From Eubacteriales bacterium (lineage in GTDB: Bacteria > Bacillota > Clostridia > Oscillospirales > CAG-272), in assembly GCA_045653745.1 (NCBI GenBank), contig JAZOMD010000109.1:1-45891 (forward strand): DNA of 45,891 nucleotides. Reading direction: 5' to 3'. The notes below the pieces were generated by a model. It did no database searches. It saw nothing but the letters and a program-made list of their open reading frames with translations, and had not been told where the DNA came from. Below are positions 3,411-43,283 of the stretch, in pieces (the stretch's first letter is position 1; every line of letters starts with the position of its first letter). A program made the position numbers and the translations under genes.

Positions 3411-5024
3411 TTATTTTTTCTCGTAGTAAGCACAGGCGAAAAGCCAGCCTGATTCGCCGATTGCCTGATATTTCTTTCCGTCAAGCTCGTCTTGCTCAAA
3501 TCTTCCCGCACCGTCGTAGAAGAATAGCTCCTTCATGCAGTAGGCGTACAGGAAATCGCGCAGCTCTTCCGTCACCGGAACGAGTCCGTCGGAGTTACAG
3601 TAGTACTGATAGCCTTCAAATCCGACAAGCTCCGGAGGGCACGGGCGGCAATCCCGGTCACAGTTCGAGCAGCCTACGAGGTTGCCGTTGCCGTCGCGCG
3701 TGGCAGCGCAAGCCCAACCCGTATCGGTTTCGGCATTATGACAGGTACAGTCGGTAACGCAGAAATAGCTTCCGTCGTTTACGCTGCCTATGGTTGAAAG
3801 ATGCGTATATCCTTCAATGAGGACCTTATAGTTGTATCCGCCTGCCGTAAGCGCACTGTTGAGTGACTCGCTTGAATCACCCTCATACTCTATTCTGTTG
3901 AACGGCCGCCCGATGAAACGGGTGCTCTCGGTGATATAAGCGTAAAGTATCGGACCGTAGCCGTCGGTCTCGGGATATTTCTCCTTACTGTAGAGGTGAT
4001 AAAATCCGTCTCCGCCGTCGTTTTCGTCCCACATTTTATACAGCCGCTCGTCAAAAACGTAAACGTTCGAAGCTTCATTCAGCCTGTATTCGGGAACGGC
4101 AATGCGATACTCCTCGTCACTGTACTCATGCTCGGATTTTACGAAATCGGAAAAATCGTGAGTAGGAACGGCGAGTCCTCCCTTCGCGACGTCCGTTCCC
4201 TCGGGATACTCAAAGGCGCCGTCGCGCTTTATGGCAAAGGTGACGGTAACCGGATATTTGTTGTTCTTTTCGTCCGCCTTTATCGCAAAGATGTAGTTAT
4301 TTCCAACCTGATCCTCGGTCAGCTTTACGGTATGCAAGAAGTTTATCGTGTAGCTGCCGACGCTGCCACCGTCGTCTATGGTGCGCTGATACCGATTCCA
4401 CGCAAACGAGCCGATGTAAACGTCCATATACGGATTCACGTTATCGGCTTCGGTGTCGACCCAGCTCTCAATGCTGTAAACTCCGTTTTCGGACGGAGAG
4501 TACATAAAGTATATCGCACTGTCCGGGCCGTCAAGCGTTGCCGCGTAAACACCGGTTTTGGAAATCGGATGGCCGCTCATAGAGCCCGTGCCGGTGCCCG
4601 TAAGAATGTTGAGCGTATGAAGCTCGAGCACCACGTTACGGTTATCGTTAGTCGCAATATTTGAGTTGGGGTCGTAGGTATATTCGTTGGGGACGGCGGA
4701 GAGCGTTACCCTATAATCGCCGTCGAGCCCGTCTATTCTGGCGGTGCCCTCCGAGTCAAACTTCGAGGTGTGAACGCTGTAACCGTCGCTCCAAAGAGCA
4801 AACATTTCCATTCTCGGAGAATAGGGCTCGCCGTCGGCGAGGAGAGTTACGGTAAAGTCGTCTGTCGGGTCGTCATTCATTGAAGGCGGCGTATAACCGT
4901 CCGTTCCGCCCTCGCCCCCTCCACCGCCGCCGGAGGGAGTGACGTATTCACCCGAGCAGGCGACCGTGGAAAGAAGCGCGGAAGCAATCAATGCTATTGC
5001 TAATAGTTTTTTCAAAATTTTCAC
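3411..5024 (-). CDS. Lipoprotein: prealbumin/Cna-B-like domain, beta-sandwich, and an unrecognised DGFYH...CxYY domain with an 8-Cys insert
   Basis: GTG start with AAGGGGG RBS; lipobox TVAC; 11 bp downstream of the vWA gene; motifs DGFYHL..GPILYAY, GLVPVTEELRDFL and WLFACAYY are shared with 16333-17709 and 17833-20697. Confidence 0.85.
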   Translation of the reverse strand: MKILKKLLAIALIASALLSTVACSGEYVTPSGGGGGGEGGTDGYTPPSMNDDPTDDFTVTLLADGEPYSPRMEMFALWSDGYSVHTSKFDSEGTARIDGLDGDYRVTLSAVPNEYTYDPNSNIATNDNRNVVLELHTLNILTGTGTGSMSGHPISKTGVYAATLDGPDSAIYFMYSPSENGVYSIESWVDTEADNVNPYMDVYIGSFAWNRYQRTIDDGGSVGSYTINFLHTVKLTEDQVGNNYIFAIKADEKNNKYPVTVTFAIKRDGAFEYPEGTDVAKGGLAVPTHDFSDFVKSEHEYSDEEYRIAVPEYRLNEASNVYVFDERLYKMWDENDGGDGFYHLYSKEKYPETDGYGPILYAYITESTRFIGRPFNRIEYEGDSSESLNSALTAGGYNYKVLIEGYTHLSTIGSVNDGSYFCVTDCTCHNAETDTGWACAATRDGNGNLVGCSNCDRDCRPCPPELVGFEGYQYYCNSDGLVPVTEELRDFLYAYCMKELFFYDGAGRFEQDELDGKKYQAIGESGWLFACAYYEKK

Positions 5025-5035
5025 ATTGTGCCCCC

Positions 5036-7687
5036 TTAAGTAAACTTTTGTTTGCTTTTCGCTCTGTTTATGCGTAATTTCCTTGCCACGATGTCAATAA
5101 CAAATAGCGCTGACGCCGCAATAAGAAGCGGTATAACGTAGCTTTGCTTGTAGAGAGACACCTCGCTCATATCCGTTTTGAGACTGGGTATTTCTCCGAC
5201 GGCAGTTGTGCCGTTATCACGCATAAACCGATATACGTTGTATTTATCGAAGCTTGCAAACATATCGTATTCCGGAAGATAAGCAAGCTCTATTTGGGTA
5301 TTATAGACGTAGGTGTTTTGCCCCGTAGCGTAGGTGATGGAAAGTCTGTAGGTTCCCACCTCTTCGGTAGCAAGGGTGAAGAAATGCTTCGAGCCGTCGT
5401 AGGTAAGAGTGCGGGATATCGTTCTTCCGCCGGGGAAGATTATTCTCATCGAAGCGCTCGCCAACGGGTCAATAACCGCAGGAACAAGCTCCACGTACGC
5501 GTTATATTCCGTGCGCTCCACGTTTACGGAAAGCGGAAGCTCTATTCTTTCAGAGGGGGTATTGCTGAGAAGAAGATTAGATAAGAATTTGCTTCTTTCA
5601 TCTTCACTCCACCTCTCGGTCCACGCATCCGAAAGCGAGGTTGCAAGGCTGGCTACCCTGCCGTTTCCGTGAGAGCGGTAAGCGTAGAGAGGAACCGTCT
5701 CCTGATAACCGTTTTCCTTAAGATAAGTAACGGTAAGCGGAACGGTGGCATCGTATTTAGCGACCGAAAGAATGTAGCCCGAAACCTTCGAGAGAGAAGT
5801 AATTCCGCTGAGAATACCATCTCCGGGCTTAGCAAGAGAAACGGATGAATCCTTGCGTATCACTACGTCGGCAAAACTCTCCGCTACACTTCCAAAAACC
5901 ACGCCGGATACGTCCTCGAGCCTGTTAAGTCGGTAAAAATTACCGCCCTCGCCTGCATTTACGACATTGTAAAGATAGGTTTCTCCTGCTGGGTCGTCGG
6001 TGTTGGAATAGATGTTTACAGCCGATACCGCAGCCCCCTTTGCATAAAGGTCGGCGGCTACCTCAAGTGCCGTTCTGTCGCTATCAAAGCTGAGTCCGTC
6101 AGAAAGAATCATTACCTGATTATGCGAAAGGTTAAGCGCATTCACCGCCGCGAGAGCCTCCTCAAGTCCAAGACCTATATCGGTTCCGTGCGAAGACGTA
6201 ATTTCGTTGATATACGAGATAAGCTCGTCCTTACAATCCCCTGCTCTTCTCGGGATTTTAACGTTAATTTTGCCCGAGAAGGTAACGAGGCAGACGTAAT
6301 CGTCGTCTTCTATAACCGAAAGGAGCTTTATCGCGGTATCCTTAGCCATGTTGAGCTTATCAGCCATAAACATACTGTGAGATGCATCGAGGAGTATCGT
6401 ATAGAGTCTTCCGTCCGTTCCCGTGCTTCCGAAATCCACGGGAAGAATCTCCTCAAGCCTCTTAAAGGTAGAGTCGTCGGAATTTGTATGAAGCTCGAGA
6501 TTTCCAAGAGTTATAAGACTTTTCCCGTACTGGGACACAACCGTGGAAACGGTGTCTATGAATGCGTTCGCGTTTCTTATATCTCTAACGTCAAGGTTAG
6601 AAAGAATTATTTCATCGTACTTTATAAGCGCCTCGACGTTTACGGGAACGCGGTCGTTATTTCCCACGACGTAGCTGTCGACGGTTACGCTCTCGCCCTG
6701 CATAGCTCTTATCAGCTGCTCGTCTGCGTAGCTTCCCGTAACGAGAAGAATATTTTTGCTCCCCACCACCTTCTGCGTAAAGGTGCAAGCGTTATTGTAC
6801 TCGGAAAGATCGTCCTCGCTCTCCAGAGTGGCTTTATACTCAAAGGAGCCGACCAGGTCTGCCGGGAGTGCCATTCTAACGGTTGTAAGACCGGAATCGG
6901 CGCTTATTACCGTATCTGCTATCAGCTCGAATTCAGCATCGGCACCCTCGTCAATCGACCTTCTGTAAAGGCTGAAAACGGCGTCAAGCTTTGACGAGGA
7001 CTGAATAAGGAACCTCGCTTCGCTTTTGTGGTTGAGATACGCCGTGGCAGACGCCTCGCAGTCAAGAAGCTGAATCTCCTTTTCGTCCTCCGAAAGAGAG
7101 TTGTCAAGAAAGATTGCGTCTATTTTTATACCGTTTTCGGTGATATTTTCTACCGCCTCGGCAATAGACGAAACGCTGTTACCCGTCGTATCGTTTCCGT
7201 CCGTGATAAGGACTATCCTCTTCAAGGAATCGCCACCAAAAAGCCCTGCCGTGAAGGTAAGCGCACCGACTATATCGGTTGCGCTCTCGTCAACGTTCGC
7301 CTCGGAAACACTTTTCAGCGTCCTTCCAGCCGGAGTCAGTATAACGCAGTCCTTTCCGAAGCAGACGACGCCCAGCTCCGAGTTTTCGGGAAGAGAACTC
7401 TTGATTTTGTCGACGTATGCGTCTATTTCCTCTTGTTTTCTTTCGGAAGAATAGGAGGTATCCGCAAGAACGTATACCGTGGTTTTCGTAAGAACGCGCG
7501 TACTTGAAAGACCTGCGACCGCAAGGGTCACGAGCACGCCGATAACAAGGTGAATAAAGAGCGATGCAGTCCAGCCTATTGAACGGTTATCTTTATTCCT
7601 TATGAGGATAAAAGGAATTATGAAAACGAGTGCAACAGGTATTATCAGCAAAAGCAGATAAGGGTTATCGAAGCTGATATTTTTCAT
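5036..7687 (-). CDS. Membrane protein with two vWA domains and a split class-I glutamine amidotransferase-like domain (MoxR/Bat-associated)
   Basis: N-terminal double TM (FDNPYLLLL), MIDAS-like DTSYS and DASHS, LITDGND and ILSDG, C-terminal TM. Start moved to MKNISF (7687), which overlaps the upstream stop. Confidence 0.88.
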   Translation of the reverse strand: MKNISFDNPYLLLLIIPVALVFIIPFILIRNKDNRSIGWTASLFIHLVIGVLVTLAVAGLSSTRVLTKTTVYVLADTSYSSERKQEEIDAYVDKIKSSLPENSELGVVCFGKDCVILTPAGRTLKSVSEANVDESATDIVGALTFTAGLFGGDSLKRIVLITDGNDTTGNSVSSIAEAVENITENGIKIDAIFLDNSLSEDEKEIQLLDCEASATAYLNHKSEARFLIQSSSKLDAVFSLYRRSIDEGADAEFELIADTVISADSGLTTVRMALPADLVGSFEYKATLESEDDLSEYNNACTFTQKVVGSKNILLVTGSYADEQLIRAMQGESVTVDSYVVGNNDRVPVNVEALIKYDEIILSNLDVRDIRNANAFIDTVSTVVSQYGKSLITLGNLELHTNSDDSTFKRLEEILPVDFGSTGTDGRLYTILLDASHSMFMADKLNMAKDTAIKLLSVIEDDDYVCLVTFSGKINVKIPRRAGDCKDELISYINEITSSHGTDIGLGLEEALAAVNALNLSHNQVMILSDGLSFDSDRTALEVAADLYAKGAAVSAVNIYSNTDDPAGETYLYNVVNAGEGGNFYRLNRLEDVSGVVFGSVAESFADVVIRKDSSVSLAKPGDGILSGITSLSKVSGYILSVAKYDATVPLTVTYLKENGYQETVPLYAYRSHGNGRVASLATSLSDAWTERWSEDERSKFLSNLLLSNTPSERIELPLSVNVERTEYNAYVELVPAVIDPLASASMRIIFPGGRTISRTLTYDGSKHFFTLATEEVGTYRLSITYATGQNTYVYNTQIELAYLPEYDMFASFDKYNVYRFMRDNGTTAVGEIPSLKTDMSEVSLYKQSYVIPLLIAASALFVIDIVARKLRINRAKSKQKFT

Positions 7688-9509
7688 AGCAATATACCCC
7701 CCAATCTGCAACGAACAGTGCTCCGAGAATAATAAAGAGCAAAATCAATGCATCGTATTTTCCGTCGATGCCGCCCTCGGTTCTTTCACCGGAAAGCGTA
7801 AAATCGCTCTCCTCGGTTACGGGCGCACTTTCCTCCGGGTCCGCCCCTGCAAAAATCTTATAAGTAACCTCCTTGCCGGCAATCGTAGCACCGACGGTAT
7901 AAACGCCGACCTCGTCAAGAAGTATATTCGATGTAGCCGACGCGATATCAACGAAGATGCTCTCTCCGGAGGGCGACTCCGCTTTATACCCCTCTGCGGT
8001 GGGTAAAATGTTTATTACCGCATCCTCGCCGACGGTGTAGCGAACCTTGTCAACGACGCTCGGGAATGAGTATTCAATAAGATTTCCGAGGAGTACCACG
8101 AAGTCCGATTTGAGTGCGAAGTCGGATTCGTGAAGATCAAAGCCGAAGACGACCTGTCTGTTACCGACTCCGTTGGTACCCGCGAATATAAGCGGATTTC
8201 CCTCGTAGCTGAAAAGCGTGGTGAATTTCAGATACATACCGCTGTATTTGAGGTATTTCGAAATATAAATGTCTTTGCCCGAGACGCCCTCAAGCAGCTT
8301 TCGCGCCGTGGTTGCCGACGAGCTCGACTTCTCAATAACGTCAGCCGTTTTAAGGCTGTTCTTCGACCTTACGTCAAAGCCCGAGTCTGCAATATTTTTA
8401 TCACAGTTCACGAGCCATACCGAGCCGCTCGGCAGCTCGCTCGGCGAATACGCATCGAAGATGTAAAGACCGTATTCCTCGGTTTCCTTCTCGTAATCCT
8501 CAGGATCTATTACCTTGACGGAGGCATCTGTAAGTGCATCAATTACCGCCTCAAAGAAAAATCCCGTTTCGCTTACGATAAGAACGCTGTACGATTTGTC
8601 CGATTGAGGATTATACTCGGTGACGGTGTTGTCAAGAGCGTATCCGTCTTTGTTTGCAACGGTCACGGAAAATCCCGAAAACGAATCAACCGAAGCTTCA
8701 ATGGTTGCCGCAGTCATTTCTCCGGCCTTTACCGACACGGTCTTTTCCGAAAGCTCCTTTCCGTCAACGACGAGCTTCAGCACGAGGTCGGCATCGCTGA
8801 TATACGATACCGCGTTCACGCTTGCCGTAAGCTTCGAGCCCGTGTGGGAATACCCGAGATCGAAAACTCCGTAGTTTTCCATATTGGCAGAGCCGACGCT
8901 GATTATTTCCAGATTTCCGTATTCGGCATAGCTTTTGTCGGTGACTAAGTAAATGAGCGCAGAGGTATTTCCGTCAAACTCCTTCTGCACCGTACCGATA
9001 AGGCTCTCGTGCGAGAGCGCCGTATGAGAGGGCTCCGCTTCCCTTACGAGTCCGATAGCACTGTCCTTATCGCTTACGCCGTCAAAGAGCACCACGGTCT
9101 CGTCTGCCGCACAAACGAGCTTATAGGTGCTACCGTCGCTTGAGCGCTTTATAACGTCGATTATCTCGTCCTTAGCCTTTTCAAATCGGCTCTCGCGCCC
9201 CTCTATCATATTCATACTTCCCGACGAGTCAAGCACGAAGCAATAATCCTTTGCTGCTCCGGGAAGCGTGAAAACGGGACGGGCTATTGCAAGTGAGATT
9301 GCCGCCACGGTAAGTATCTGAAGAATAAGACTGATTAGTCCCGTGATTGCACTCAGAGGATTTCTTCGCTTCAGGAATTTATCGCTGAGATGCCATATGT
9401 AAGTAGACGGAACAGTCTGCTCGGTGTACTTGCTTCTGAGAATGTATATCACGATTATTATCGGGATAGCAATAAGACCCAGAAGACCAAGGGGATAAGT
9501 AAAAGTCAT
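7665..9509 (-). CDS. BatA-type N-terminal double-TM plus vWA domain protein
   Basis: MTFTYPLGLLGLIAIPIIIVIYIL...VPSTYIW...ARP is the BatA N-terminal pattern; MIDAS DSSGS; C-terminal TM. Confidence 0.88.
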   Translation of the reverse strand: MTFTYPLGLLGLIAIPIIIVIYILRSKYTEQTVPSTYIWHLSDKFLKRRNPLSAITGLISLILQILTVAAISLAIARPVFTLPGAAKDYCFVLDSSGSMNMIEGRESRFEKAKDEIIDVIKRSSDGSTYKLVCAADETVVLFDGVSDKDSAIGLVREAEPSHTALSHESLIGTVQKEFDGNTSALIYLVTDKSYAEYGNLEIISVGSANMENYGVFDLGYSHTGSKLTASVNAVSYISDADLVLKLVVDGKELSEKTVSVKAGEMTAATIEASVDSFSGFSVTVANKDGYALDNTVTEYNPQSDKSYSVLIVSETGFFFEAVIDALTDASVKVIDPEDYEKETEEYGLYIFDAYSPSELPSGSVWLVNCDKNIADSGFDVRSKNSLKTADVIEKSSSSATTARKLLEGVSGKDIYISKYLKYSGMYLKFTTLFSYEGNPLIFAGTNGVGNRQVVFGFDLHESDFALKSDFVVLLGNLIEYSFPSVVDKVRYTVGEDAVINILPTAEGYKAESPSGESIFVDIASATSNILLDEVGVYTVGATIAGKEVTYKIFAGADPEESAPVTEESDFTLSGERTEGGIDGKYDALILLFIILGALFVADWGVYCYEKYQLR

Positions 9510-10390
9510 TTAAGCACCCCCAAATCAACCAGATTTCCGAAAAAGACGTCAAAGAGCTTTTCGTGAGCGGGAACGAGAAGATAGGCTCCGCCTCTGGATT
9601 CACAGTAATTCTTGATTCTCTCAACGACAAAGCGCAAAGCGGCTTTGTAGGCGTTCACTCTGTCTTTATCTATCTTCTTACGGAAGAAGCGCTGCGGATC
9701 TTCCGAATCGAAAAGGTGCATTTTCCCTCTGAACTGCGGATTAAGCTCCTCACGGGAAAGAATCTGCACGCAGAAAACGTCCCTTCTCTGCTCCGTAAGC
9801 TTGTCTATCGCCTGCACGAAATCCGCGTCGGTCAGAAAGTCCGAAATTATTATAGAATACCCGTCGCCCATACCTATTTTCGAATTTACTATCGCCTCGC
9901 TGATAGCCACGTCGTCGGTGAATTCTATTTCATTGAGCTTGTTAACAGAGGCAAGATAGGCTTCCTTGCCAACTATACCGGAAATGATTTCGTCAAGTCT
10001 GCCACCGTGTATTGCGTACACCGACACCTTATCCATCTCACACACCGAAAGATATGCAAACGCCGCCGCCATCTTCAGCACCTGCTCGGCCTTTTCCTGA
10101 CTTGAAAACCGAACGGAACGGCTTGCGTCTATATATATCTTCGTATGCATCTGGCGCTCGTCCAGATACAGCTTCTGAAAAAGCTTGTCCGAGCGAGCGT
10201 AGATTTTCCAGTCGATTTTATTGATATCGTCGCCTTCTCTGTACTCGCGGTAATCCGCGAAGTCACACGACGAGCCAAAATTCTTCGACCTATGGTTTCC
10301 GCCAAACATTCCGGCAATATTGTTTTTGAGGACCGTTTCAAGGGCTTCAAGCTCCATAAGAAACGCCTCGTCAATTACCATTTTTCCCAT
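9506..10390 (-). CDS. DUF58 family protein (vWA-like MoxR partner)
   Basis: G.HRS..FG.S.DFADYREYREGDDINKIDWKIYAR; DASRS; IISDF. Confidence 0.93.
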   Translation of the reverse strand: MGKMVIDEAFLMELEALETVLKNNIAGMFGGNHRSKNFGSSCDFADYREYREGDDINKIDWKIYARSDKLFQKLYLDERQMHTKIYIDASRSVRFSSQEKAEQVLKMAAAFAYLSVCEMDKVSVYAIHGGRLDEIISGIVGKEAYLASVNKLNEIEFTDDVAISEAIVNSKIGMGDGYSIIISDFLTDADFVQAIDKLTEQRRDVFCVQILSREELNPQFRGKMHLFDSEDPQRFFRKKIDKDRVNAYKAALRFVVERIKNYCESRGGAYLLVPAHEKLFDVFFGNLVDLGVLK

Positions 10391-11446
10391 TTAGCGAACC
10401 TTTTCAGTTTCTTTGATTATCATTCCTATAACCTCGTCAACGGTAAGCTTCTCGTTGACGGCGGTGTAATTGATTTTAATTCTGTGGCGAAGCACCTGAC
10501 GTGCAAGCGCATCGATATCCTCGTAGGAAACGTTGTATCTGCCCTGCATAAGCGCGCGCACCTTTGCCGCGGTAATAAGGCCCTGCGCCGCACGGGGAGA
10601 CGCACCGTATTTTACATACTTCTTGGTAGAGGGAGCTCCTGCGTCGAGCTCGGGGTGAGTTCCGGTTACGATACCGACAGCATAACGAAGAACCTCGTCT
10701 GCGAGGGGAACCGATGCCGCAAGCTCTCGCATCTCGAGAATTTCCTCTCCCGAAAGCGCCGCGTTCGCAGTCTCATCCATCGTCTTCTGAGTCATTTTAA
10801 CTATGTCGCAAAGCTCGTCCGCGTTAGGGAAGCCTACGATAAGCTTGAACATAAATCGGTCCATCTGAGCCTCGGGAAGCGGATACGTACCGTCCTGCTC
10901 TATCGGGTTCTCGGTTGCCAGAACGAAGAAGGGCTCTTCAATCTTGTAGGTCGCGTTATCCACGGTAACCTTGTGCTCCTGCATTACCTCGAGCATAGCA
11001 GACTGGGTCTTGGGGGTTGCACGGTTTATCTCGTCGGCAAGAACGAGATTTGCAAATATAGGACCTCTCTTAAACTTCGTTACGAGTCTGCCGTTTTCGT
11101 CCTTCTCGATTATGTTGGCGCCCGTTACGTCGGAGGGCATAAGGTCGGGGGTGAACTGTATTCTCGAAAAGGGAAGGTCGAGTACTCTTCCGAGCGAGCG
11201 CACAAGACGGGTCTTGCCTACTCCGGGAACACCCTCGAGAAGCACGTTTCCTCCCGCTACTATCGCTATAATGACGTTATCGATTATTTCGCTCTGTCCT
11301 ACGACGTCGCGCCCCAGCTGCGCCTTTACGTCTTCAATCTTTTTGCTGAACGCCTTTACTCTTTCAAGCTCGGATGCGCTCTCGCCTACAACCGTATTTC
11401 TGTTTTCCATTTCAACCTCGATTGCGTTTATTTCGGTATTGCTCAT
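10391..11446 (-). CDS. moxR: MoxR-family AAA+ ATPase
   Basis: Walker A GVPGVGKT, RIQFTPDLMPSD, Walker B LADEINRATPKTQSA, ATENPIEQDGTYPLPEAQMDRF, GASPRA. Confidence 0.96.
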   Translation of the reverse strand: MSNTEINAIEVEMENRNTVVGESASELERVKAFSKKIEDVKAQLGRDVVGQSEIIDNVIIAIVAGGNVLLEGVPGVGKTRLVRSLGRVLDLPFSRIQFTPDLMPSDVTGANIIEKDENGRLVTKFKRGPIFANLVLADEINRATPKTQSAMLEVMQEHKVTVDNATYKIEEPFFVLATENPIEQDGTYPLPEAQMDRFMFKLIVGFPNADELCDIVKMTQKTMDETANAALSGEEILEMRELAASVPLADEVLRYAVGIVTGTHPELDAGAPSTKKYVKYGASPRAAQGLITAAKVRALMQGRYNVSYEDIDALARQVLRHRIKINYTAVNEKLTVDEVIGMIIKETEKVR

Positions 11447-12963: not shown

Positions 12964-12997
12964 AAAATCTCCTAAAATAATATATGTTAATAATAAT

Positions 12998-13026
12998 ATT
13001 ATACCAAAGAGGGCGACTAATGTCAA
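12998..13026 (-). promoter_or_regulatory. Consensus sigma-A promoter for the moxR-vWA-lipoprotein operon
   Basis: Minus strand TTGACA-17 bp-TATAAT with extended -10 TGG. Confidence 0.85.
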
Positions 13027-13083
13027 CATTTAATTTTTAAATTACTGTTCTATGAGTAGGAAAGCTTTTTGCGGCTTTTGCTC

Positions 13084-13112
13084 GTGACAATTTGCGAATA
13101 CTATTGTATAAT
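13084..13112 (+). promoter_or_regulatory. Sigma-A promoter for the divergent thiol-redox pair
   Basis: GTGACA-17 bp-TATAAT. Confidence 0.7.
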
Positions 13113-13157
13113 TATTTCGTTAATTTTTCACTCGACAAATTCAAGAAAGGACAGGTT

Positions 13158-13994
13158 ATGACGGAAAGCCAAAAATCAAGGCTGAAGAGCCTTATCCCCG
13201 ACGGAAGGCTTGAGAAGGTAAAGCTTCTTCTTTCTCTTCTGCTCTCGCTTCTTTTAATTGTAACCGCCGTATGCTTTGTAATCAGCTGCGTTTCGATTTA
13301 CAAAAGCGGCTCCGACGCACCGTTTTCAAGAGATACGGTTGCGGCTCATCTGAAAAGAGTCGCTCCTATAAGCCTTAGCACCATAGGACTTGCAGTGGCG
13401 GTCGGTATCATCTCGCTTTTCACAAAAAAATCCAAAACGAAAAATATTCCCATCGAAAAAAAGACGCTTCTTTCGATATTCACAAAAAGGCTCTCAAATT
13501 TCCAAACCTCCGCCGAATATGCTCGCTTCGTGGACGAAGAAAGAAAAAGAAGACGGATAACCGTATTATCTGCCACAGCGCTCTCTCTTGTTTTTGCGGC
13601 ATCGGCTCTTATATTCGTTCTGAATCCGTCAAGATACTCGCTTGACGACATAAATACGGGCATAGCCTACGCCGCGGTTATCGCTTGCGTATCCACACTT
13701 CTCGTATTTGCGGTTTGCTTGGCTTGCGCGCACCTTCTCGACCTCTCCTACGCCAGAGAAATCAAAATGGCAAAAGAGGAGATAAAGAGCCTTAATCAAG
13801 GTGTGAAAATCGCTCCGAGCGATGAGGAGCTCCGCGCTCTTTCCTCACGCGAAGGACACGCGATCTCTCTTGTAAGAATAATAGTTCTGACCGTCGCCGT
13901 AGCATTCATTATCGCAGGAATATTCAACGGCGGAATGGCAGACGTTCTCGGAAAGGCAGTCCGTATTTGCACGGAATGTATAGGTCTTGGCTGA
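13158..13994 (+). CDS. Multi-TM membrane protein ending in a CD1871A-like CxxC motif
   Basis: About 5 hydrophobic helices. The C-terminus GIFNGGMADVLGKAVRICTECIGLG matches the CD1871A-family tail as I recall it (not searched). Start set at MTESQK after the AAGGA RBS. Confidence 0.8.
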   Translation: MTESQKSRLKSLIPDGRLEKVKLLLSLLLSLLLIVTAVCFVISCVSIYKSGSDAPFSRDTVAAHLKRVAPISLSTIGLAVAVGIISLFTKKSKTKNIPIEKKTLLSIFTKRLSNFQTSAEYARFVDEERKRRRITVLSATALSLVFAASALIFVLNPSRYSLDDINTGIAYAAVIACVSTLLVFAVCLACAHLLDLSYAREIKMAKEEIKSLNQGVKIAPSDEELRALSSREGHAISLVRIIVLTVAVAFIIAGIFNGGMADVLGKAVRICTECIGLG

Positions 13995-13995
13995 T

Positions 13996-15489
13996 ATGAA
14001 AAAGCTTTTCGGAAAATTAAAGGGTCTTATCCCAACCAAGAGAAGACTCATTCAGCTATACGCAGCTCTGCTCACAAATGCAAACATAAAGGGTTTTGCA
14101 AACGGACGAATTTATCAGGGTCCGGTCAAGAACGCCTGCGTTCCCGGGCTTAACTGCTATTCCTGTCCTGCGGCGGCAGGCTCCTGCCCTCTCGGAGCGT
14201 TGCAAAACGCGCTTGCCGCAAGCGGAAAGCGCACCCCGTACTACGTTTTCGGCATTATTCTGCTCTACGGAATAATTTTCGGAAGAATGATATGCGGCTT
14301 CCTCTGCCCCTTCGGTCTGGTACAGGATCTCCTATATAAAATCAAAACTCCAAAGCTCGGCAAGAGCAGAGTAACGAAGGTTTTCTCCTATTTCAAGTAC
14401 GTAATACTCGTCCTTTTGGTAGTCGTGTTCCCTCTCATTTATGCGTTCAAGGATATGCCTCTGCCCGCATTCTGTAAATACATATGCCCTGCCGGCACGC
14501 TCGGCGGAGCAATAGGTCTCCTTCTTAACTCGGCAAACGACGGACTTTACGCAATGCTCGGTCCGTTATTTACCTGGAAATTCGTCCTTCTCGTAGTCTT
14601 CATCGTTGCAAGCATATTCATATACCGCTTCTTCTGCCGTTTCTTCTGCCCCCTCGGCGCCCTTTACGGTCTTTTCAACAAGTTCGCAATTCTCGGAATC
14701 AAGCTTGAAAAGCCGAAATGCACCGACTGCGGTAAGTGTATCTCTACCTGCAAGATGGATATAACGAGGGTCGGAGACAAGGAATGTATAAGCTGCGGCG
14801 ACTGCGTTTCGGTATGCTCCACGGGAGCGATAGAATACAGAGGCGGAAGGTGGCTGCTCGCAGAGAACACAATTCCCGAAAATGCTACCGCAGAAGAAAA
14901 GGCGGCAGCTCGAAAGAAACGCAGCAAGCGTTCCCTTGTAATCAAAATTACATCTTTGGTTCTTGCGGCGGCACTCCTTATCGGTACACTCGTATACTAT
15001 AACGTTATCGACAACAAGCCCCTTCCCGAATCGGGGAGCGAGGTTGGATATTCCTGCCCGACGAACGACCTTGAGCTTGTAGACGGCTCGGGCAAGATAA
15101 GCATTTCCGCCCTTCGCGGCAAAATCGTGGTTATCAACTTCTGGGGTACGTGGTGTACTCCCTGCGTTGCGGAATTGCCCCACTTTGACGAGCTTGCAAG
15201 GGAATATAAGGACGAAGTAATCGTCCTCGCAGTACACTCCTCCGACAGCTATGGAAATATGCTCCCCGAGGATTTTGTAGAGGCGTACTACCCCGAGAGC
15301 GAAATGATTTTCGCCAAGGATAAGCCCAGCGAGTCGGACCCGTACGTCGATGATTATTACCTCACTCTCGGCGGCATCAGCACATATCCTATGACTGTCA
15401 TAGTTGATGCAGAAGGCGTTATCACCTTCAAGCGAGAGGGTTCAATGACGTACAGCGATCTCGTCAGCCAAATAGAGGCGATAAAGTAA
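13996..15489 (+). CDS. NapH/YccM-type membrane 4Fe-4S-binding protein fused to a C-terminal TlpA-like thioredoxin
   Basis: CVPGLNCYSCP..CPLG, CGFLCPFG, CKYICPAG, CRFFCPLG; two CxxCxxCxxxC clusters (CTDCGKCISTC, CISCGDCVSVC); a TM; then GKIVVINFWGTWCTPCVAELP...YPMT. ATG lies 1 nt after the upstream TGA (alternative TTG at 13987). Confidence 0.92.
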   Translation: MKKLFGKLKGLIPTKRRLIQLYAALLTNANIKGFANGRIYQGPVKNACVPGLNCYSCPAAAGSCPLGALQNALAASGKRTPYYVFGIILLYGIIFGRMICGFLCPFGLVQDLLYKIKTPKLGKSRVTKVFSYFKYVILVLLVVVFPLIYAFKDMPLPAFCKYICPAGTLGGAIGLLLNSANDGLYAMLGPLFTWKFVLLVVFIVASIFIYRFFCRFFCPLGALYGLFNKFAILGIKLEKPKCTDCGKCISTCKMDITRVGDKECISCGDCVSVCSTGAIEYRGGRWLLAENTIPENATAEEKAAARKKRSKRSLVIKITSLVLAAALLIGTLVYYNVIDNKPLPESGSEVGYSCPTNDLELVDGSGKISISALRGKIVVINFWGTWCTPCVAELPHFDELAREYKDEVIVLAVHSSDSYGNMLPEDFVEAYYPESEMIFAKDKPSESDPYVDDYYLTLGGISTYPMTVIVDAEGVITFKREGSMTYSDLVSQIEAIK

Positions 15490-15541
15490 TATAGTGCGCC
15501 ATTTTGACCACTTTTGTTTGCATATATTGCATTTTTATAAG

Positions 15542-15573
15542 AAAAAAGCCGAATCTGCAAAGATTCGGCTTTT
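15542..15573. terminator. Bidirectional rho-independent terminator
   Basis: AAAAGCCGAATCT-GCAA-AGATTCGGCTTTT between convergent genes. Confidence 0.9.
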
Positions 15574-15597
15574 AATTTTTGAGTGTATTTTTTGAGA

Positions 15598-16248
15598 TTA
15601 TTTCGCCTGCAAAACGATAGTTACGGTATTGTCCGTAAGGGTGAAGTAATCGTCAGTGTAGGCATACGCATCGGGTGCTGAAACGACCTTCGCCTTGTAG
15701 GTATCGCTCTTAAGAGCGCTCTCAAGCTTACCGTTTGAATCTGTGGGCTTCGGAAGCTGGCAGGCACCCGTAGCATCGCAAATCTGGACCATTACGCCCG
15801 CGATGGGATTACCGCTTGCATCCTTTACGTAAACCGTATAAACGGGAAGCTTCTCGAGCGTTACGGTTGCCGCGTTATTTACAAGCTTGGTGTTGACTGT
15901 GGGGGAATCAAATCCTGCGGGAACGTAGGTTATTTTCGCATAATATTCGCCCTCGTTCTTTATCTTGAACGTTGCAAGACCGTCAGCGCCGGTCGTAACT
16001 TCGCTGCCCATAGGAGCAACGCCGTCCAAAAGAAGCTGCACCTTAGCTCCGCTGACAAGGTTGCCCGCGGAATCCTTAACCGTTACGGTATAGGTTATCT
16101 TTCCATCGTCTGCGCCGGGAGTGTCGCCTCCGCCCTCACCGGAACCTCCGGGCTCATTGCCGCCACCACAGGATACGAGTGCAAACGCCATGCATAACGT
16201 AAGCGAAAGAAGCAGGAGCACCGACATTAACTTTTTAAGGCTTTTCAT
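15598..16248 (-). CDS. Lipoprotein with two prealbumin/carboxypeptidase-regulatory-like domains; the second carries Cx5C
   Basis: Lipobox LVSC; repeats YTVTVKDSAGNLVSGAKVQL...TGADG and YTVYVKDASGNPIAGVMVQICDATGAC...TDSNG; GGAGG RBS. Confidence 0.87.
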   Translation of the reverse strand: MKSLKKLMSVLLLLSLTLCMAFALVSCGGGNEPGGSGEGGGDTPGADDGKITYTVTVKDSAGNLVSGAKVQLLLDGVAPMGSEVTTGADGLATFKIKNEGEYYAKITYVPAGFDSPTVNTKLVNNAATVTLEKLPVYTVYVKDASGNPIAGVMVQICDATGACQLPKPTDSNGKLESALKSDTYKAKVVSAPDAYAYTDDYFTLTDNTVTIVLQAK

Positions 16249-16278
16249 AAAATCCTCCGTTTAATATTATCTTGGTAT

Positions 16279-16307
16279 ATTATACCACGGTAAATTGCCG
16301 TTTTCAA
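16279..16307 (-). promoter_or_regulatory. Sigma-A promoter overlapped by an 8-bp inverted repeat
   Basis: Minus strand TTGAAA-17 bp-TATAAT with extended TGG; AAATTGCC(16292-16299)...GGCAATTT(16310-16317) flanks the -35. Confidence 0.7.
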
Positions 16308-16332
16308 GTGGCAATTTTCATTTTTTATTTCT

Positions 16333-17709
16333 TTATCTGTCTTCGTAATAGCAGCAAGCAAAGAGATGTGCGTTTTCAGCGACTACCGTACCATCCGTTA
16401 TAATAGAGAAAATGTAGTTTGCGCCGCCGCTATACCATCCCCATGCGTCACCTATTACGGCGAACGCCTCCTTGATTGCCGGTGTGAGGGGATAAACGCC
16501 GAGAGATTCGTCAGCCGCGTCGATATATTTTTGAATCATCGTGTGATAATTGATTTTTTTCTCGAGCTCACCGTCTTCACCGTAAATGTAAACGGAAAGC
16601 TGAGTGGTTTCCATTATGGTTTTAAACGAGGCAAGATACGGAGAATCAACGGCAATCTTAGCGAGGATTACCGGACCGTCTGCCGAGCCGAGGTGATAAA
16701 ATCCGTCGTTTTCGTTGTATACCGCGCTAAGAGTCGAATCGGTTATGTCAAAATCGGTGAGCTCGGAAAGTCCGCCGATTTCAAAATCGGGAACGTACTT
16801 CGGAGGATTCTCGGGAAGAAGATACTCCTCCCAAGGAAGCTCCTCCTTGCTGAGAGGAAGCTCGGTGTCAACGCATTTTATGGTAACCGTAGCGGAGCAC
16901 GCCACCTCGGTGTCTATGCGGCATACGTATCTTGAGCTTGAATTATAGTCCTCTCCGACGTTGAATATTCTTATGTTGAAGAAGAGGTCGCCGTCCTCGG
17001 TAAACACCTCTCCGCTTCCGTCCTCCGAGGCAAGATTTACCGCCTGAACAAAATGAGGACCGCCGTAATAGCCAAGCGAGGTCTGCTCGTCACACTCAAC
17101 GGATATTTTGTATTGTCCGCGCATCGTAGGAACGAAAATAAAGTAGTTATATCCCTCTTTTAAATCGACGCGGTATCCTCCGTCGTCGAGAATCGAGGCA
17201 GAAACCGACTCCACTATCCCGTCACTCGGATAAATCGTTGCCGTGGGAAGACCGTCGGTAACATCGTATATGGTAACGGTAATCTCCTCCGCACCGTCGG
17301 AAAGGGTAGCAAGAGACTTATCGTAATAAAAGTCGGAATTCTTAGAATCCACAATCTCAACAGTAAAGGGCTTTTCAGATGCAGTCAGCGCATTCTTTTC
17401 CGAGCAGGAAACTATTCCCTGCTCGTCCGTCATTTTCATACCGAGCTTCTCTCCGTCTGCATCAAGTATGGTTACTATCATATTAGGCAAAGGCGTGCCG
17501 TGTGCATCAACCACCTTTACCGTGTAGACTATCTTGCCGTCGAGATTAGGGTCCCCAAGCTCTGCCTCGCACACGTCGCAAACGAGGTCGCGGTTTTCGT
17601 CCACGCAAGTCTTGCACGACCCGTCTGTGCTATCACCGCACGCCGCCAAAGCAAGGATAGAGATAAAAGCGACGAGTGTCAGAATAATATTTGAAATTCT
17701 TTTTAACAT
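16333..17709 (-). CDS. Lipoprotein: 4-Cys N-terminal module, prealbumin-like domain, beta-sandwich, and DGFYH...CxYY domain
   Basis: Lipobox LAAC; CKTCVDENRDLVCDVC; YTVKVVDAHG; YFIFVPTMRGQYKI; DGFYHLGSADGPVILAKI...GVYPLT...HLFACCYY. Confidence 0.87.
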   Translation of the reverse strand: MLKRISNIILTLVAFISILALAACGDSTDGSCKTCVDENRDLVCDVCEAELGDPNLDGKIVYTVKVVDAHGTPLPNMIVTILDADGEKLGMKMTDEQGIVSCSEKNALTASEKPFTVEIVDSKNSDFYYDKSLATLSDGAEEITVTIYDVTDGLPTATIYPSDGIVESVSASILDDGGYRVDLKEGYNYFIFVPTMRGQYKISVECDEQTSLGYYGGPHFVQAVNLASEDGSGEVFTEDGDLFFNIRIFNVGEDYNSSSRYVCRIDTEVACSATVTIKCVDTELPLSKEELPWEEYLLPENPPKYVPDFEIGGLSELTDFDITDSTLSAVYNENDGFYHLGSADGPVILAKIAVDSPYLASFKTIMETTQLSVYIYGEDGELEKKINYHTMIQKYIDAADESLGVYPLTPAIKEAFAVIGDAWGWYSGGANYIFSIITDGTVVAENAHLFACCYYEDR

Positions 17710-17781
17710 AGTTACTCCATTTGCCGCCGTAAGACGGTAGGTTTTATAAATGACACTTGCAAAAAAACATTTCTGTTAGGT

Positions 17782-17820
17782 AAATCAGGGGGCGTTTTCG
17801 TGTAATGCCCCCTGATTTTT
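17782..17820. terminator. Stem-loop downstream of the TlpA-lipoprotein gene (terminator or mRNA-stabilising hairpin)
   Basis: AAATCAGGGGGCGTT...AATGCCCCCTGATTT. Confidence 0.7.
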
Positions 17821-17832
17821 AGTTATTTTCGA

Positions 17833-20697
17833 TCAGCGAACGGTGGAAACCCATTCCCAGCCCTCGCCGATATACTCATAGTAGTAGCAAAGCTTTACCC
17901 ACGAGTTTTCAACGTCCTTGAAGGTGTACTTATCCATAAGCATCTGCAAAATCTCGGCAAGCTCTGCATTTACAGCAACGCAGCCTCTGATTTCCAAATC
18001 GCCCTCGGTAATCATACTATTGTAATACTCGGTTATCTTTGCGGTCATATCCTCGCCGTCACCGTGATAGACGCCGGCTCTGGTTTCGGCAACCTTATGG
18101 AATTCGAAGTTCGCTTCGAAATCGTCACCCCACATCTGACGAAGCTGCTCGTCGGTGAAGTCGGCATAATGGTCGCTATCGCTCTTAGCAAAGTTGAAAG
18201 ATCCTTTTTCTATCATCTGGGCGAGCGAATTATAAGCAAAAATGCTTGTGAACATAGTGAAGTCAACGTAAATTTTCGAGCTTCCCATAGTTCCGTCGGG
18301 AAGAATATTGTAGTAATATCCGTCGTCCTCGTTAAGCTTAACCTTCACGCCGCCTGCGATAAGAAGGTTAGTAATGTTGCCGTCCTCGTCAAGAGCGTAG
18401 GTAAAGGGAGCTCCGGGAGAAACCGAGCGGAACAGAGAATAATCCTCGCCAAGGTACTCAATCTTGAAGCCGAAGCTGTCAAATTTGTAGGGGTCCTCGT
18501 ACGCGATGTCAATATAATAGGTAGTGCCTGCTTCAAAATAAGCGTGCATACGGACGTTATTGCCGTCGTCAAGAAGTCTCTCGCAGATAACGTGCTCGTA
18601 ATAGAGAGAGCCGTCCTCGAGGAATATCCAGCCTGCAAGGCCTGCACCGGTGTCATCTTTGTTAACGTTGGAAACGATACGGTAAGCTCCCGACTTCGTG
18701 GGAGTGAATGCATACCAGAGACCTCTGGGCATAATAACGCGGTCGTAGGTAACCACGTTGGGGTACTCGTCAAGTCCTACCTCAGCATTCTCAACGGTGG
18801 GGTAAGCAGAGTGAGGAGCAAGACCGATAATGGGGTCCTCAAGCTCAGCTCCGTCCGTTCCGTAAGCGTCGTAATAGAGGCAGAGCTGAAGCCACTGATT
18901 AGGATTGTCTTTTTCAACTCCTACGGCATTTACAACGATTTTAAGATAATCCGCAAGAGTAGCGTCAACCGTGCAAAGACCGTTGATTTTTGCATTGGAT
19001 GCGTAGTTGCAATATTTAACAATTGCGTCGTAATACTGCGCCAAATTGGCACTATTGTAAATAAAACCGTACACAGAGTTGTCAGACGAGAAGGGAGTGA
19101 CGCCCATAAGGTTGGCAAGAAGAAGCGGTCCGTTTTCATCTCCGACATGATAATATCCGTCGTTTCCGAGCACTACCGTAGCGTAGGTTTGGTATCCGTC
19201 GCCGTTATCAAACGGGTCTGTCGCAGCCCAGCGAGGAATGAAGGATGGGGTGGTTACAGCCTCTTCGTCCACCACGCGAACGTTCTTGATGTAAACGGTA
19301 TCAAGCTCGGTATCGGTAGACTCGTCCTTCAGGTAAATGATGGTAAACTTATAGGTACCCGCCTTGGTTGCTACGTACGGATAGCAGGTCTTCCATTCCG
19401 TGCTCACGCCGGATATGGTATTGATATTCACTCCGTCAACGAGCACGTAGAGAATGTCTGCGCCCTGCTCGGTCGAGGTGAAATAATCAAACGCAAACGC
19501 CTGTCCGGCGTCAAGAGTGACGTCCGCGTGCAGAGTTGCAAAGGAGCTGTCCTTCTTCGCGTTAGAGGACTTGATACAGGGAACTCCGTCCTTGTCGGTT
19601 ATAACGAACGGCCAGGAGTATTCAGCATCCACGCTGTCCTCTTCGGGATAATAATTTATAGTAATATCACCCGAGTTAAGAACCTCGGACATTTCTTCGT
19701 TTGAGGGCATTTCGATGTCGGGCTTCTCCTGAGGAGCGAGCTCCTCGTAATTGTTTATGAGCTTCTGCTCGTAATCTGCGCCCTTGAAGTGGTCGAATAT
19801 AACGTTGAAATACTTTTCTCCGGTGATAGCTCCGGGAACGATAAGACATACCGTGCCGTATCTGTCAACCATAACAGAGGTGGGGTACGCGGTTACACCG
19901 AAGGAGGTAGCAAGTCCGAAGGTGTCCTGCGCCATATCAAAGGTGAGTCCGTAGGAATTCTTGAACACCCTTATGTCTTCCATCGAATCGGTGGTGTATG
20001 GGTCGAGTGCCACGATGGCGATATCCTCAGAATAGGTCTGGTACGCAGACTCCATATAGGGAAACTCCTCAACGCACCACGAGCAGGTGGTGTACCAGAA
20101 GTTGATAAGAACCGCATCCTTCTCCTCGAGAAGCTTCGAGAGAGTCACGGTCTTTCCCTCGGTGGTGGTTACCGTGAAGTCACGCATTATGCTTCCGAGC
20201 CTGTAGGTAACACCCGTAAGCGAGGTGTTGCTTATGACCTTGGAAGTAAGAGTTATAGCCGCACTCGTGCCGCTGAAGGTGTAATAATCCTCTATCAGGT
20301 ATCCTTCGGGAACTCCGCTCAGCTTGATAGCGTATCCGTCGAGCTGAGGAAGCTTAACCGTTGCAATTCCGTTTGCGTCGGTGGTAGCATAGCCCTCGAG
20401 ATCCTCGAAGCTGTTATCCGAATAAACGGTTACCACAACGCCCTCGAGCGTCATTCCGCCGATAGTCTTAACGCTGACGGTGTAGTTTACTTTTTCTCCG
20501 GTGCCGTTACCGGTTCCGGGGGTATTGCCGGGCTTTACCGCCGCACCGCACTTGTCGCACTTGAGGTTGTTGTCGGCATCGACGCAAACCTTGCAGGTAT
20601 CGTTCTTATCTCCGCAGGAGGTAAGAGTTCCCACCGTCGCGCCAAACATAAGAACAAGCGCCAGAAGAAGCGCGAGCGCTCTGTTGAATTTTCTCAT
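17833..20697 (-). CDS. Large lipoprotein: 4-Cys module, prealbumin-like domain, TlpA/redoxin domain, and two DG[FY]Y...CxYY domains
   Basis: Start MRKFNR (GAAAGG RBS); lipobox LTSC; CKVCVDADNNLKCDKC; DFTVTT..LINFWYTTCSWCVEEFP...AYPTSVMVDRYG (thioredoxin fold); two copies of the shared domain. Confidence 0.9.
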   Translation of the reverse strand: MRKFNRALALLLALVLMFGATVGTLTSCGDKNDTCKVCVDADNNLKCDKCGAAVKPGNTPGTGNGTGEKVNYTVSVKTIGGMTLEGVVVTVYSDNSFEDLEGYATTDANGIATVKLPQLDGYAIKLSGVPEGYLIEDYYTFSGTSAAITLTSKVISNTSLTGVTYRLGSIMRDFTVTTTEGKTVTLSKLLEEKDAVLINFWYTTCSWCVEEFPYMESAYQTYSEDIAIVALDPYTTDSMEDIRVFKNSYGLTFDMAQDTFGLATSFGVTAYPTSVMVDRYGTVCLIVPGAITGEKYFNVIFDHFKGADYEQKLINNYEELAPQEKPDIEMPSNEEMSEVLNSGDITINYYPEEDSVDAEYSWPFVITDKDGVPCIKSSNAKKDSSFATLHADVTLDAGQAFAFDYFTSTEQGADILYVLVDGVNINTISGVSTEWKTCYPYVATKAGTYKFTIIYLKDESTDTELDTVYIKNVRVVDEEAVTTPSFIPRWAATDPFDNGDGYQTYATVVLGNDGYYHVGDENGPLLLANLMGVTPFSSDNSVYGFIYNSANLAQYYDAIVKYCNYASNAKINGLCTVDATLADYLKIVVNAVGVEKDNPNQWLQLCLYYDAYGTDGAELEDPIIGLAPHSAYPTVENAEVGLDEYPNVVTYDRVIMPRGLWYAFTPTKSGAYRIVSNVNKDDTGAGLAGWIFLEDGSLYYEHVICERLLDDGNNVRMHAYFEAGTTYYIDIAYEDPYKFDSFGFKIEYLGEDYSLFRSVSPGAPFTYALDEDGNITNLLIAGGVKVKLNEDDGYYYNILPDGTMGSSKIYVDFTMFTSIFAYNSLAQMIEKGSFNFAKSDSDHYADFTDEQLRQMWGDDFEANFEFHKVAETRAGVYHGDGEDMTAKITEYYNSMITEGDLEIRGCVAVNAELAEILQMLMDKYTFKDVENSWVKLCYYYEYIGEGWEWVSTVR

Positions 20698-20856
20698 CTT
20701 TCTTTTTCCTTTCACGTAAGTCCGCTTGCAAGTTTTCGTTTCTGACAAAAGATAACGCGGTGCAAGTGGGATTTGAAAACCTTATCCCGAGAGTTTTTTA
20801 CGAAAAACACGAAAATTCTTCATCTTCTCGGGCAATAATTATATTTTCACCCTTTT

Positions 20857-29788: not shown

Positions 29789-29820
29789 ATTAATCGTATT
29801 TCGAAGAAAGAAGACAGAAA

Positions 29821-32658: not shown

Positions 32659-32670
32659 TAGGAGGACACT

Positions 32671-33651: not shown

Positions 33652-33666
33652 GGAGGTGCGGATACG

Positions 33667-34776: not shown

Positions 34777-34779
34777 ACT

Positions 34780-40037: not shown

Positions 40038-40049
40038 TTTTCCCACTCC

Positions 40050-41930: not shown

Positions 41931-41937
41931 ATCTTAT

Positions 41938-43260: not shown

Positions 43261-43283
43261 AATCTTTCCCCGCTTTTATATAT

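Follow-up and report, generated by a model that had tools for sequence, protein, structure and literature searches.

A conserved, unclassified domain present four times in three clostridial lipoproteins and its association with thioredoxin-fold proteins

The locus and its three lipoproteins

The stretch of DNA analysed here (the window) is 45,891 nucleotides long and corresponds to positions 1 to 45,891 of contig JAZOMD010000109.1 (C109) of a Eubacteriales bacterium (Clostridia; Oscillospirales; CAG-272), whose 1.76-Mb assembly (GCA_045653745.1) consists of 195 contigs and is 83% complete. Three genes on the minus strand of the window encode lipoproteins, here called P1, P2 and P3, which together carry four copies (A to D) of a domain with a DG[FY]Y[HY] motif near its start and a CxYY motif near its end. 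The genes and copies are as follows, with lengths in amino acids (aa).

3411 to 5024, minus strand: P1, a 537-aa lipoprotein with copy A, gene 6 of a MoxR/DUF58/VWA operon (based on translation and operon synteny)
16333 to 17709, minus strand: P2, a 458-aa lipoprotein (based on translation, AlphaFold2 model and Foldseek)
17833 to 20748, minus strand: P3, a lipoprotein with a 971-aa open reading frame (ORF), or 954 aa from the likely start M18, as in the database record
3414 to 4052, minus strand: copy A, P1 residues 325-537, enlarged by a Cys-rich insert, scoring 317.8 bits with the family hidden Markov model (HMM)
16336 to 16752, minus strand: copy B, P2 residues 320-458, the reference copy, modelled by AlphaFold2
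18853 to 19206, minus strand: copy C, P3 residues 515-632
17836 to 18366, minus strand: copy D, P3 residues 795-971, with Tyr in place of the His of the first motif

The original prediction, made before any database search, had placed four such copies in three lipoproteins, and both parts hold. The motifs map to 3414-4010, 16336-16707, 18871-19161 and 17878-18324, with DG[FY]Y[HY] starting at P1:339, P2:335, P3:530 and P3:809 and CxYY at P1:531, P2:452, P3:623 and P3:954. The three ORFs translate as had been written, and lipoboxes could be read from the translations after the N-terminal signal peptides (TVAC in P1, LAAC in P2, LTSC in P3). In the family alignments, all 66 P2 sequences (C24) and all 45 P3 sequences (C28) have the lipobox Cys, and its conservation in the P1 family (C23) is 90% or more. 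P1, P2 and P3 are, judging by these signals, bacterial lipoproteins.

From N- to C-terminus, P2 consists of a Cys4 motif, a transthyretin-like immunoglobulin (Ig) domain, a collagen-binding/PPC-like sandwich and copy B, and P3 of an Ig-like domain, a ResA-like thioredoxin domain, a sandwich, copy C, a sandwich and copy D. The zinc-ribbon-like Cys4 motif (CxxC, 8-9 residues, CxxC) stands directly after the lipobox in P2 (residues 32-47, about 17569-17616) and P3 (residues 52-67, about 20548-20595). It is confined to close relatives, others having low-complexity linkers instead.

Homology of the four copies

Compared directly by BLASTP, the copies are only weakly alike (C-D 4e-5, B-C 2e-3, the other four pairs not significant). 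Therefore, homologues of each protein were gathered and family profiles were compared. This yielded 52 homologues for P2, 202 for the C-terminal part of P1 (best 120 of 202 listed) and 2033 for P3 residues 500-971 (best 120 of 2033 listed). The domain columns were cut from the family alignments for profile-profile comparison with hhalign. High probabilities were obtained for B-C (99.2%, E 2e-19), C-D (98.0%, E 2e-13), A-B (97.7%, E 2e-12) and B-D (90.6%), with A-C (72.7%) and A-D (49.3%) as the weaker pairs. All 20 pairings of a copy with a control, i.e. the thioredoxin domain or one of the four preceding regions, remained at or below 2.4%.

Genome-wide scans covered the 10,909 ORFs of 60 aa or more that the six reading frames contain. 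Besides P2 itself, the copy-B family HMM detected only P1 (7.9e-5) and P3 (2.1e-4), with no other ORF at E<=10, and the four family HMMs together gave exactly four instances, in these three ORFs. The two motifs at a distance of 60-220 residues occur in 3 of the 10,909 ORFs, again P1, P2 and P3. Taken together, the contrast with the controls, the exclusivity of the HMM matches and the rarity of the motif pair indicate that the four copies are homologous and form one real domain. They are best explained as members of one ancient extracytoplasmic family. The concern that pairwise similarity might not be significant, which the original prediction had named as grounds for dropping it, does not apply at the profile level.

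The core of the domain measures about 120-140 residues. About ten positions are common to the four very divergent groups of sequences that surround the copies (D, G, Y, H, G, P, G, L, C and Y).

Family status and predicted fold

No Pfam-A or NCBIfam family covers P1 325-537, P2 320-458, P3 515-632 or P3 795-971 at E<=1. When 22 isolated domain sequences were scanned singly, no family matched more than two of them (best E 2.6e-4). A profile search of all PDB sequences gave a single match, 2jpu/2q00 ('Orf c02003 protein'; E 0.0025, 20.9 bits, 73 profile columns). It was treated as a chance match, with a marginal score, covering half of the domain and absent from the listed Foldseek matches of the model.

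Based on a 22-row domain alignment, AlphaFold2 produced a confident, compact alpha/beta model of copy B, with a mean predicted local distance difference test (pLDDT) of 90.4 and a predicted template modelling score (pTM) of 0.81. Seven short strands and four helices make up the model, whose final strand (E133-135) is formed by the CxYY residues. The same secondary-structure elements recur in the model of full-length P2, which is confident throughout (pLDDT 93.4, pTM 0.80). Foldseek matched only the N-terminal transthyretin-like Ig domain and the sandwich before copy B of this full-length model to known folds. For the domain model it found no neighbour in PDB (best E 0.5, template modelling score at most 0.19) nor in BFVD (best E 0.3), and look-ups in the ESM Atlas gave best feature scores of 0.88 and 0.77, both under the meaningful level. 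Neither by sequence profile nor by fold could the domain thus be assigned to a solved structure in PDB. A literature search by its motif strings gave no description of it among the papers listed, judged on titles and abstracts.

The statement that the domain belongs to no known family is borne out by these searches of Pfam, NCBIfam and PDB, in which no characterised family was found. We rate it as a new, unclassified family of predicted extracytoplasmic alpha/beta domains with a fold that is apparently unmatched in PDB and BFVD.

The Cys and His of the two motifs

The Cys of CxYY and the His of DGYYH were counted in 835 unique instances of the domain, drawn from every protein and locus retrieved; relatives among them are not independent. 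The counts by group are listed below, each group being named after the copy it resembles.

Group A: Cys at the motif column in 149/150, His of DGYYH in 150/150
Group B: Cys at the motif column in 278/321, His of DGYYH in 318/321
Group C: Cys at the motif column in 182/182, His of DGYYH in 182/182
Group D: Cys at the motif column in 180/182, His of DGYYH in 89/182 (Tyr in 91)
All groups: Cys at the motif column in 789/835, His of DGYYH in 739/835

The Cys, initially described as invariant, is near-universal rather than strictly invariant, and the concern that it might not be conserved among homologues can be set aside. Its substitutes in group B are L (15), V (9), A (7), T (3), F (3), I (2) and S (1), and three further instances have a gap at this column. 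Most B-type copies have a CC doublet, and the second Cys is found in 39 of the 43 copies without the first, compared to 211 of the 278 others (Fisher p 0.03, for relatives that are not independent). With the second Cys kept where the first is gone, a Cys is present at one of the two positions in 828/835 instances. The His is largely conserved, as had been described, except that half of the copy-D-type instances have Tyr. Both residues occur together in 693 of the 835 instances, His only in 46, Cys only in 96 and neither in none. Mean-field direct coupling analysis of the pairing of the DGYYH and CxYY strands, on the 835 instances and on the 321 of B type, returned artefacts of C-terminal indels and alignment shifts as top couplings.

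The preceding beta-sandwiches

In almost all cases a beta-sandwich comes before the domain, which is often the last part of the protein. Three such sandwiches were delimited in the window.

4065 to 4637, minus strand: sandwich before copy A, P1 residues ~130-320, with the motif FMYSPSENGVYSI at residue 173
16765 to 17232, minus strand: sandwich before copy B, P2 residues ~160-315, PPC/collagen-binding-like (Foldseek), with the motif at residue 190
18379 to 18831, minus strand: sandwich before copy D, P3 residues ~640-790, with the motif YAFTPTKSGAYRI at residue 679

For the sandwich before copy B, Foldseek identified the ColG collagen-binding domain (1nqd, 2o8o and 4hpk; TMt 0.52-0.54, E 4e-4 to 2e-3). 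The fold match would fit membership of the PPC family, yet Pfam PF04151 does not match these proteins. The sandwich of P1 is related to that of P2 (hhalign 83.5%), and the one before copy D to those of P1 (70.1%) and P2 (59.6%). No relation to the other sandwiches could be demonstrated for the region before copy C (hhalign 24%, 5% and 1%). The claim that each copy follows a sandwich with a [YF].F.P...G.Y.I motif accordingly stands for copies A, B and D and fails for copy C. Sandwich and domain are best explained as one unit of about 290 residues that uncultured gut Clostridia display on lipid-anchored proteins at their surface, three of the four copies standing after a PPC/collagen-binding-like sandwich.

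Distribution of the family

A search of 1.84 billion representatives with the domain profile gave 925 clusters (50% identity) at E<=1e-3, 613 at 1e-10 and 216 at 1e-30; the best 150 of the 925 were inspected. Scanning one genome per GTDB species for the pattern gave 281 loci, 80 of which were kept for the copy-B neighbourhood counts, and 40 loci for copy A were gathered with an alignment query. All 80 kept copy-B loci come from metagenome-assembled genomes of uncultured Clostridia/Eubacteriales (e.g. with Oscillospiraceae, Acutalibacteraceae or Lachnospiraceae labels), whose source, where the record names one, is gut or faeces. In even samples of other genomes, the B-type profile matched 2/100 of the order and 0/400 of the phylum, from which the family is seen to be patchy and lineage-restricted.

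Gene neighbourhood: the P3-P2 cluster

Two conserved surface gene clusters use the domain, and this window holds both of them, 11 kb apart. The cluster of P3 and P2 includes the following features.

19849 to 20196, minus strand: ResA/TlpA-like thioredoxin-fold domain of P3, residues 185-300, with CSWC at 222 (AhpC-TSA match)
15598 to 16248, minus strand: Big_1/CarboxypepD_reg protein of 216 aa, after P2 in the conserved cluster (Pfam)
13987 to 15489, plus strand: NapH/MauN-type 4Fe-4S membrane protein with a ResA-like thioredoxin domain (Pfam and NCBIfam)
13092 to 13994, plus strand: membrane protein with a C-terminal CD1871A-type CXXC tail (NCBIfam NF040920; 1.7e-10, 40.6 bits, cut-off 32)

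The thioredoxin domain of P3 is matched by Pfam AhpC-TSA (2e-14, 54.1 bits, cut-off 26) and Redoxin (40.9 bits, cut-off 26.6), and its CxxC cysteines are invariant in 45 sequences. Among PDB entries, ResA 4nmu is matched at 4.8e-22, followed at about 1e-11 by 2yp6, 4hqz and 4hqs, each named 'thioredoxin family protein', which we take to be the pneumococcal Etrx proteins. The NCBIfam ResA model scores 77.8 bits, under its subfamily cut-off of 170, so the domain is ResA-like and not an equivalog. P3 residues 185-300 are classed, on these matches, as a thioredoxin-fold oxidoreductase domain of the ResA/TlpA-like kind.

The same fusion was met in an architecture survey of 144 newly fetched representatives. 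Seventy-five were at least 500 aa long, and Pfam scans of 64 of these found Redoxin in 21, AhpC-TSA in 20, Big_1 in 21 and CarboxypepD_reg in 15. No catalytic Pfam family other than the thioredoxin-fold redoxin was fused to the domain in these 64 long representatives.

In the neighbourhood counts, each ORF was assigned to the best-scoring gene of the window. The counts at copy-B loci are lower bounds, because many loci end at contig borders. A P3-like redoxin lipoprotein stands directly upstream of the P2 homologue in 79/80 loci, and a Big_1 protein downstream in 75/80. Less often, an S8 subtilase with leucine-rich repeats (LRR; 34/80), the NapH-like/ResA-like membrane protein (27/80), its CD1871A-tailed partner (25/80) or Opp genes (15-17/80) are found nearby. 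MoxR, DUF58 or VWA genes are near none of the 80 copy-B loci, which rules out a general partnership of MoxR/VWA proteins with the domain. A conserved link to copper handling by the copper ATPase CopA, encoded nearby (37560-40046), was likewise rejected, this gene lying near only 1/80 copy-B and 1/40 copy-A loci.

In the NapH-like protein, an extra transmembrane helix joins the 4Fe-4S part to an outward-facing ResA/TlpA-like domain (WCTPC). This protein is the probable electron supply of the cluster, and together with the ResA-like domain of P3 it looks like a route for reducing equivalents to the surface. Literature searches, judged on titles and abstracts, found no such NapH/thiol-disulfide cluster in Clostridia and nothing on CD1871A.

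Three further observations concern genes at this cluster. The end of the CD1871A-tailed gene overlaps the start of the NapH-like gene, and the pair may be a reductant conduit similar to DsbD/CcdA. The N-terminus of the Big_1/CarboxypepD_reg protein has a sub-threshold match to the NCBIfam 'lipo-invert' C-terminal anchoring domain (32.2 bits, cut-off 37). At 21047-37210 on the plus strand lies a 2913-aa S8 subtilase with PA, Fn3-like and BspA-type LRR regions, followed by an unusually long SBP_bac_5 protein (945 aa) and OppBCDF.

Gene neighbourhood: the P1 operon

Copy A belongs to the second cluster, which runs on the minus strand from 13029 to 3 in the order 527-aa membrane protein of unknown function, MoxR, DUF58, BatA/VWA, VWA, P1 and a giant protein. 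Two of its features were delimited further.

5036 to 13029, minus strand: upstream genes of the P1 operon, i.e. the 527-aa protein, MoxR (AAA_3), DUF58, BatA/VWA and VWA (Pfam; synteny in 31-36/40 loci)
3630 to 3767, minus strand: Cys-rich insert in copy A, P1 residues ~420-465 (alignment of 30 sequences)

Around P1 homologues, these five genes and the giant gene are present, in order, in 31, 32, 32, 34, 36 and 39 of 40 loci. The giant protein itself has no Pfam match and is truncated by the window start.

Within the Cys-rich insert, C422, C426, C439, C452, C455 and C459 are invariant in the 30 sequences, and C428 and H429 are at least 90% conserved. The insert may be a metal site or a disulfide knot. 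One NCBI homologue is annotated as a 4Fe-4S dicluster protein. The insert does not have the spacing of a 4Fe-4S ferredoxin, with CxxCxxxCxxCP (P1 452-463) against CxxCxxCxxxCP, and P1 gives no Fer4 match at E<=1.

Comparison with known systems

Like ResA and StoA of Bacillus and Etrx1 and Etrx2 of Streptococcus pneumoniae, P3 is a lipoprotein with a ResA-like CxxC domain to which a membrane partner presumably supplies electrons. Those proteins are single-domain and about 150-190 aa long, whereas P3 has about 650 residues more, including two copies of the new domain, which has no counterpart in them. The likely donor to P3 also differs: in place of CcdA or DsbD it is a NapH-like 4Fe-4S protein, to which a further ResA-like domain is fused. 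The likeness to PPC/ColG collagen-binding domains is limited to the sandwiches before the copies (B by fold, A and D via hhalign); no collagenase or peptidase domain is attached in P1-P3, and the DGYYH...CxYY domain is not involved.

The route from TlpA to ScoI/CoxB relies on a thioredoxin-like reductase to maintain the Cys ligands of a copper chaperone in reduced form. The logic would be the same here, an extracytoplasmic ResA/TlpA-like reductase being combined with a putative client domain that bears Cys and His. By Pfam and Foldseek, Sco, PCuAC and cupredoxins have no sequence or fold relation to the new domain.

The P1 operon resembles the Bat (Bacteroides aerotolerance) or MoxR-DUF58-VWA operons in having MoxR (AAA_3), DUF58, BatA-N/VWA and VWA genes, and differs from classical Bat operons, which have neither a P1-like lipoprotein nor a giant downstream protein. 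In one paper (PMC3557215), Bat proteins are described as having been proposed to reduce oxidised periplasmic proteins or to export reducing power. According to the same paper, no oxidative-stress phenotype was found for Bat in Leptospira and the proposed function was not borne out (PMC3557215).

Possible roles of the domain

The catalytic, redox or metal site that the original prediction had suggested for the Cys and His is a candidate feature of the domain. The fusion and neighbourhood with thioredoxin-fold domains, which are exclusive, favour a redox or ligand role over a hydrolytic one. We tentatively favour a reading in which a thiol-redox system at the cell surface uses the domain as the part that faces its client or ligand, and in which the ResA-like domains keep the Cys of the domain, together with His or Tyr, reduced. 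The NapH-like/ResA-like membrane protein would take electrons from the cytoplasm and hand them to the ResA-like domain of P3, and the new domain would then face the client or ligand of the system. The reductase would set the thiol state of the near-universal Cys, which would act along with the His (or Tyr) of the DGYYH strand. Once reduced, the thiol could bind a ligand or metal, or take part in making and resolving mixed disulfides; as the nucleophile of a hydrolase it would not serve. With copy A, the same module would be employed inside a MoxR/VWA (Bat-like) surface complex. A bolder version is doubtful. It holds that the domain is a new fold in which the Cys and the His/Tyr of the DGYYH strand form a redox-active or metal/cofactor site, and that it is the terminal client of an undescribed transmembrane reducing pathway of gut Clostridia, from the NapH-like 4Fe-4S part through the fused ResA-like domain to the ResA-like lipoprotein. 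This pathway would take the place of DsbD/CcdA.

Several observations weigh against a thiol-redox role. Fusion and neighbourhood give a functional link and no direction, and the domain could simply bind the substrate of the reductase. The operon of copy A has no thioredoxin gene, no redoxin-type match was found in its 40 loci, and P3-like genes lie within 10 kb of it in only 4/40; its Bat-like context fits the redox theme only loosely. Even at the P3-P2 cluster, the NapH-like gene is nearby in only about a third of the loci (27/80) within the flanks covered. The Cys lies in a hydrophobic stretch (LFACCYY), and 40/321 B-type copies have L, V, A, T, F, I or S instead, which looks like a buried core position. 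In 91/182 D-type copies Tyr has taken the place of His and the Cys is retained; each of the two residues is lost independently of the other, and hence they are not an obligate pair. A complex prediction for the thioredoxin domain of P3 (158-312 of the 954-aa form) and copy C (495-618) from 45-row alignments, made without controls, gave an ipSAE of 0.00 twice and counts neither way.

The main rival, possible and on balance rather unlikely, is that of a non-catalytic binding or recognition module in which the Cys is a packing residue. Together with the PPC-like sandwich, it would hold a macromolecular substrate (protein, peptide or glycan) for the fused thioredoxin, the S8 subtilase or the VWA proteins. 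This would suit the company the domain keeps, all other domains in the host proteins being non-catalytic Ig-, transthyretin- or collagen-binding-like sandwiches, the S8/LRR protease and the Opp genes being among its neighbours, and the P1 operon offering a second context without thioredoxin. It would also suit the hydrophobic segment around the Cys, with L, V, A, I or F instead in B-type copies, and the many conserved aromatic positions (Y338, Y358, Y374, Y388, Y395, Y406, W425, F434, F450 and Y454). A packing Cys is, however, not expected to persist in 149/150, 182/182 and 180/182 members of three BLASTP-divergent groups, nor to be backed up by a neighbouring Cys when lost (39/43); being kept through four groups barely linked by BLASTP appears to exceed the usual demand of packing. 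Pfam scans gave no match to a carbohydrate- or peptide-binding family either, and no ligand is known. A structural spacer or cap without a ligand of its own, serving to stabilise the sandwich before it or to carry the lipoprotein further through the wall, is improbable. The usual place of the domain after a sandwich, often at the protein end, is what such a part would have, and the confident full-length P2 model is compatible with a rigid multi-domain rod. About ten positions held over four very divergent groups are nevertheless beyond the need of a spacer, and the specific tie to thioredoxin folds would be left unexplained.

An enzyme with a Cys-His catalytic dyad, e.g. a new cysteine hydrolase or transferase, which is the catalytic option of the original prediction, is very improbable. 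Cys and His do belong to the small set of nearly universal polar residues, yet searches by sequence and fold (Pfam, NCBIfam, Foldseek) gave no match to a peptidase or hydrolase family. Half of the D-type copies have Tyr for His, and 13% of the B-type copies have an aliphatic residue for Cys, the sole Cys then being shifted by one strand position. The model places the Cys in a short C-terminal strand and not at a helix N-terminus. In particular, the domain does not qualify as a cysteine peptidase of the NlpC-P60 type, its His preceding the C-terminal-strand Cys by about 95-190 residues, with no HMM or fold match. That the four copies are a mere chance likeness of short motifs, for which the non-significant BLASTP pairs (four of six) could speak, is refuted by the separation of the hhalign probabilities of 90.6-99.2% from the controls, the exclusive occurrence among the 10,909 ORFs, the 925 clusters and the confident compact fold.

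The newness of the domain is modest; it lies in an unclassified family with an apparently unmatched fold and not in a new biological principle. Of the two conserved surface gene clusters that the domain marks, one brings together two outward-facing thioredoxin domains and an iron-sulfur membrane protein of the NapH-like kind. Were the domain indeed the client of this pathway, it would offer a way to study how reducing power reaches the surface of strict gut anaerobes. With at least 925 clusters, the family merits a Pfam/DUF entry and a structure.

Further content of the window

A stretch of low GC content is present at 40659-45721 on the minus strand (GC 0.38-0.41 compared to about 0.49 elsewhere). 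Its genes point to polysaccharide synthesis and encode a UDP-glucose/GDP-mannose dehydrogenase, a Polysacc_synt flippase, a GT4 glycosyltransferase and one unknown protein.

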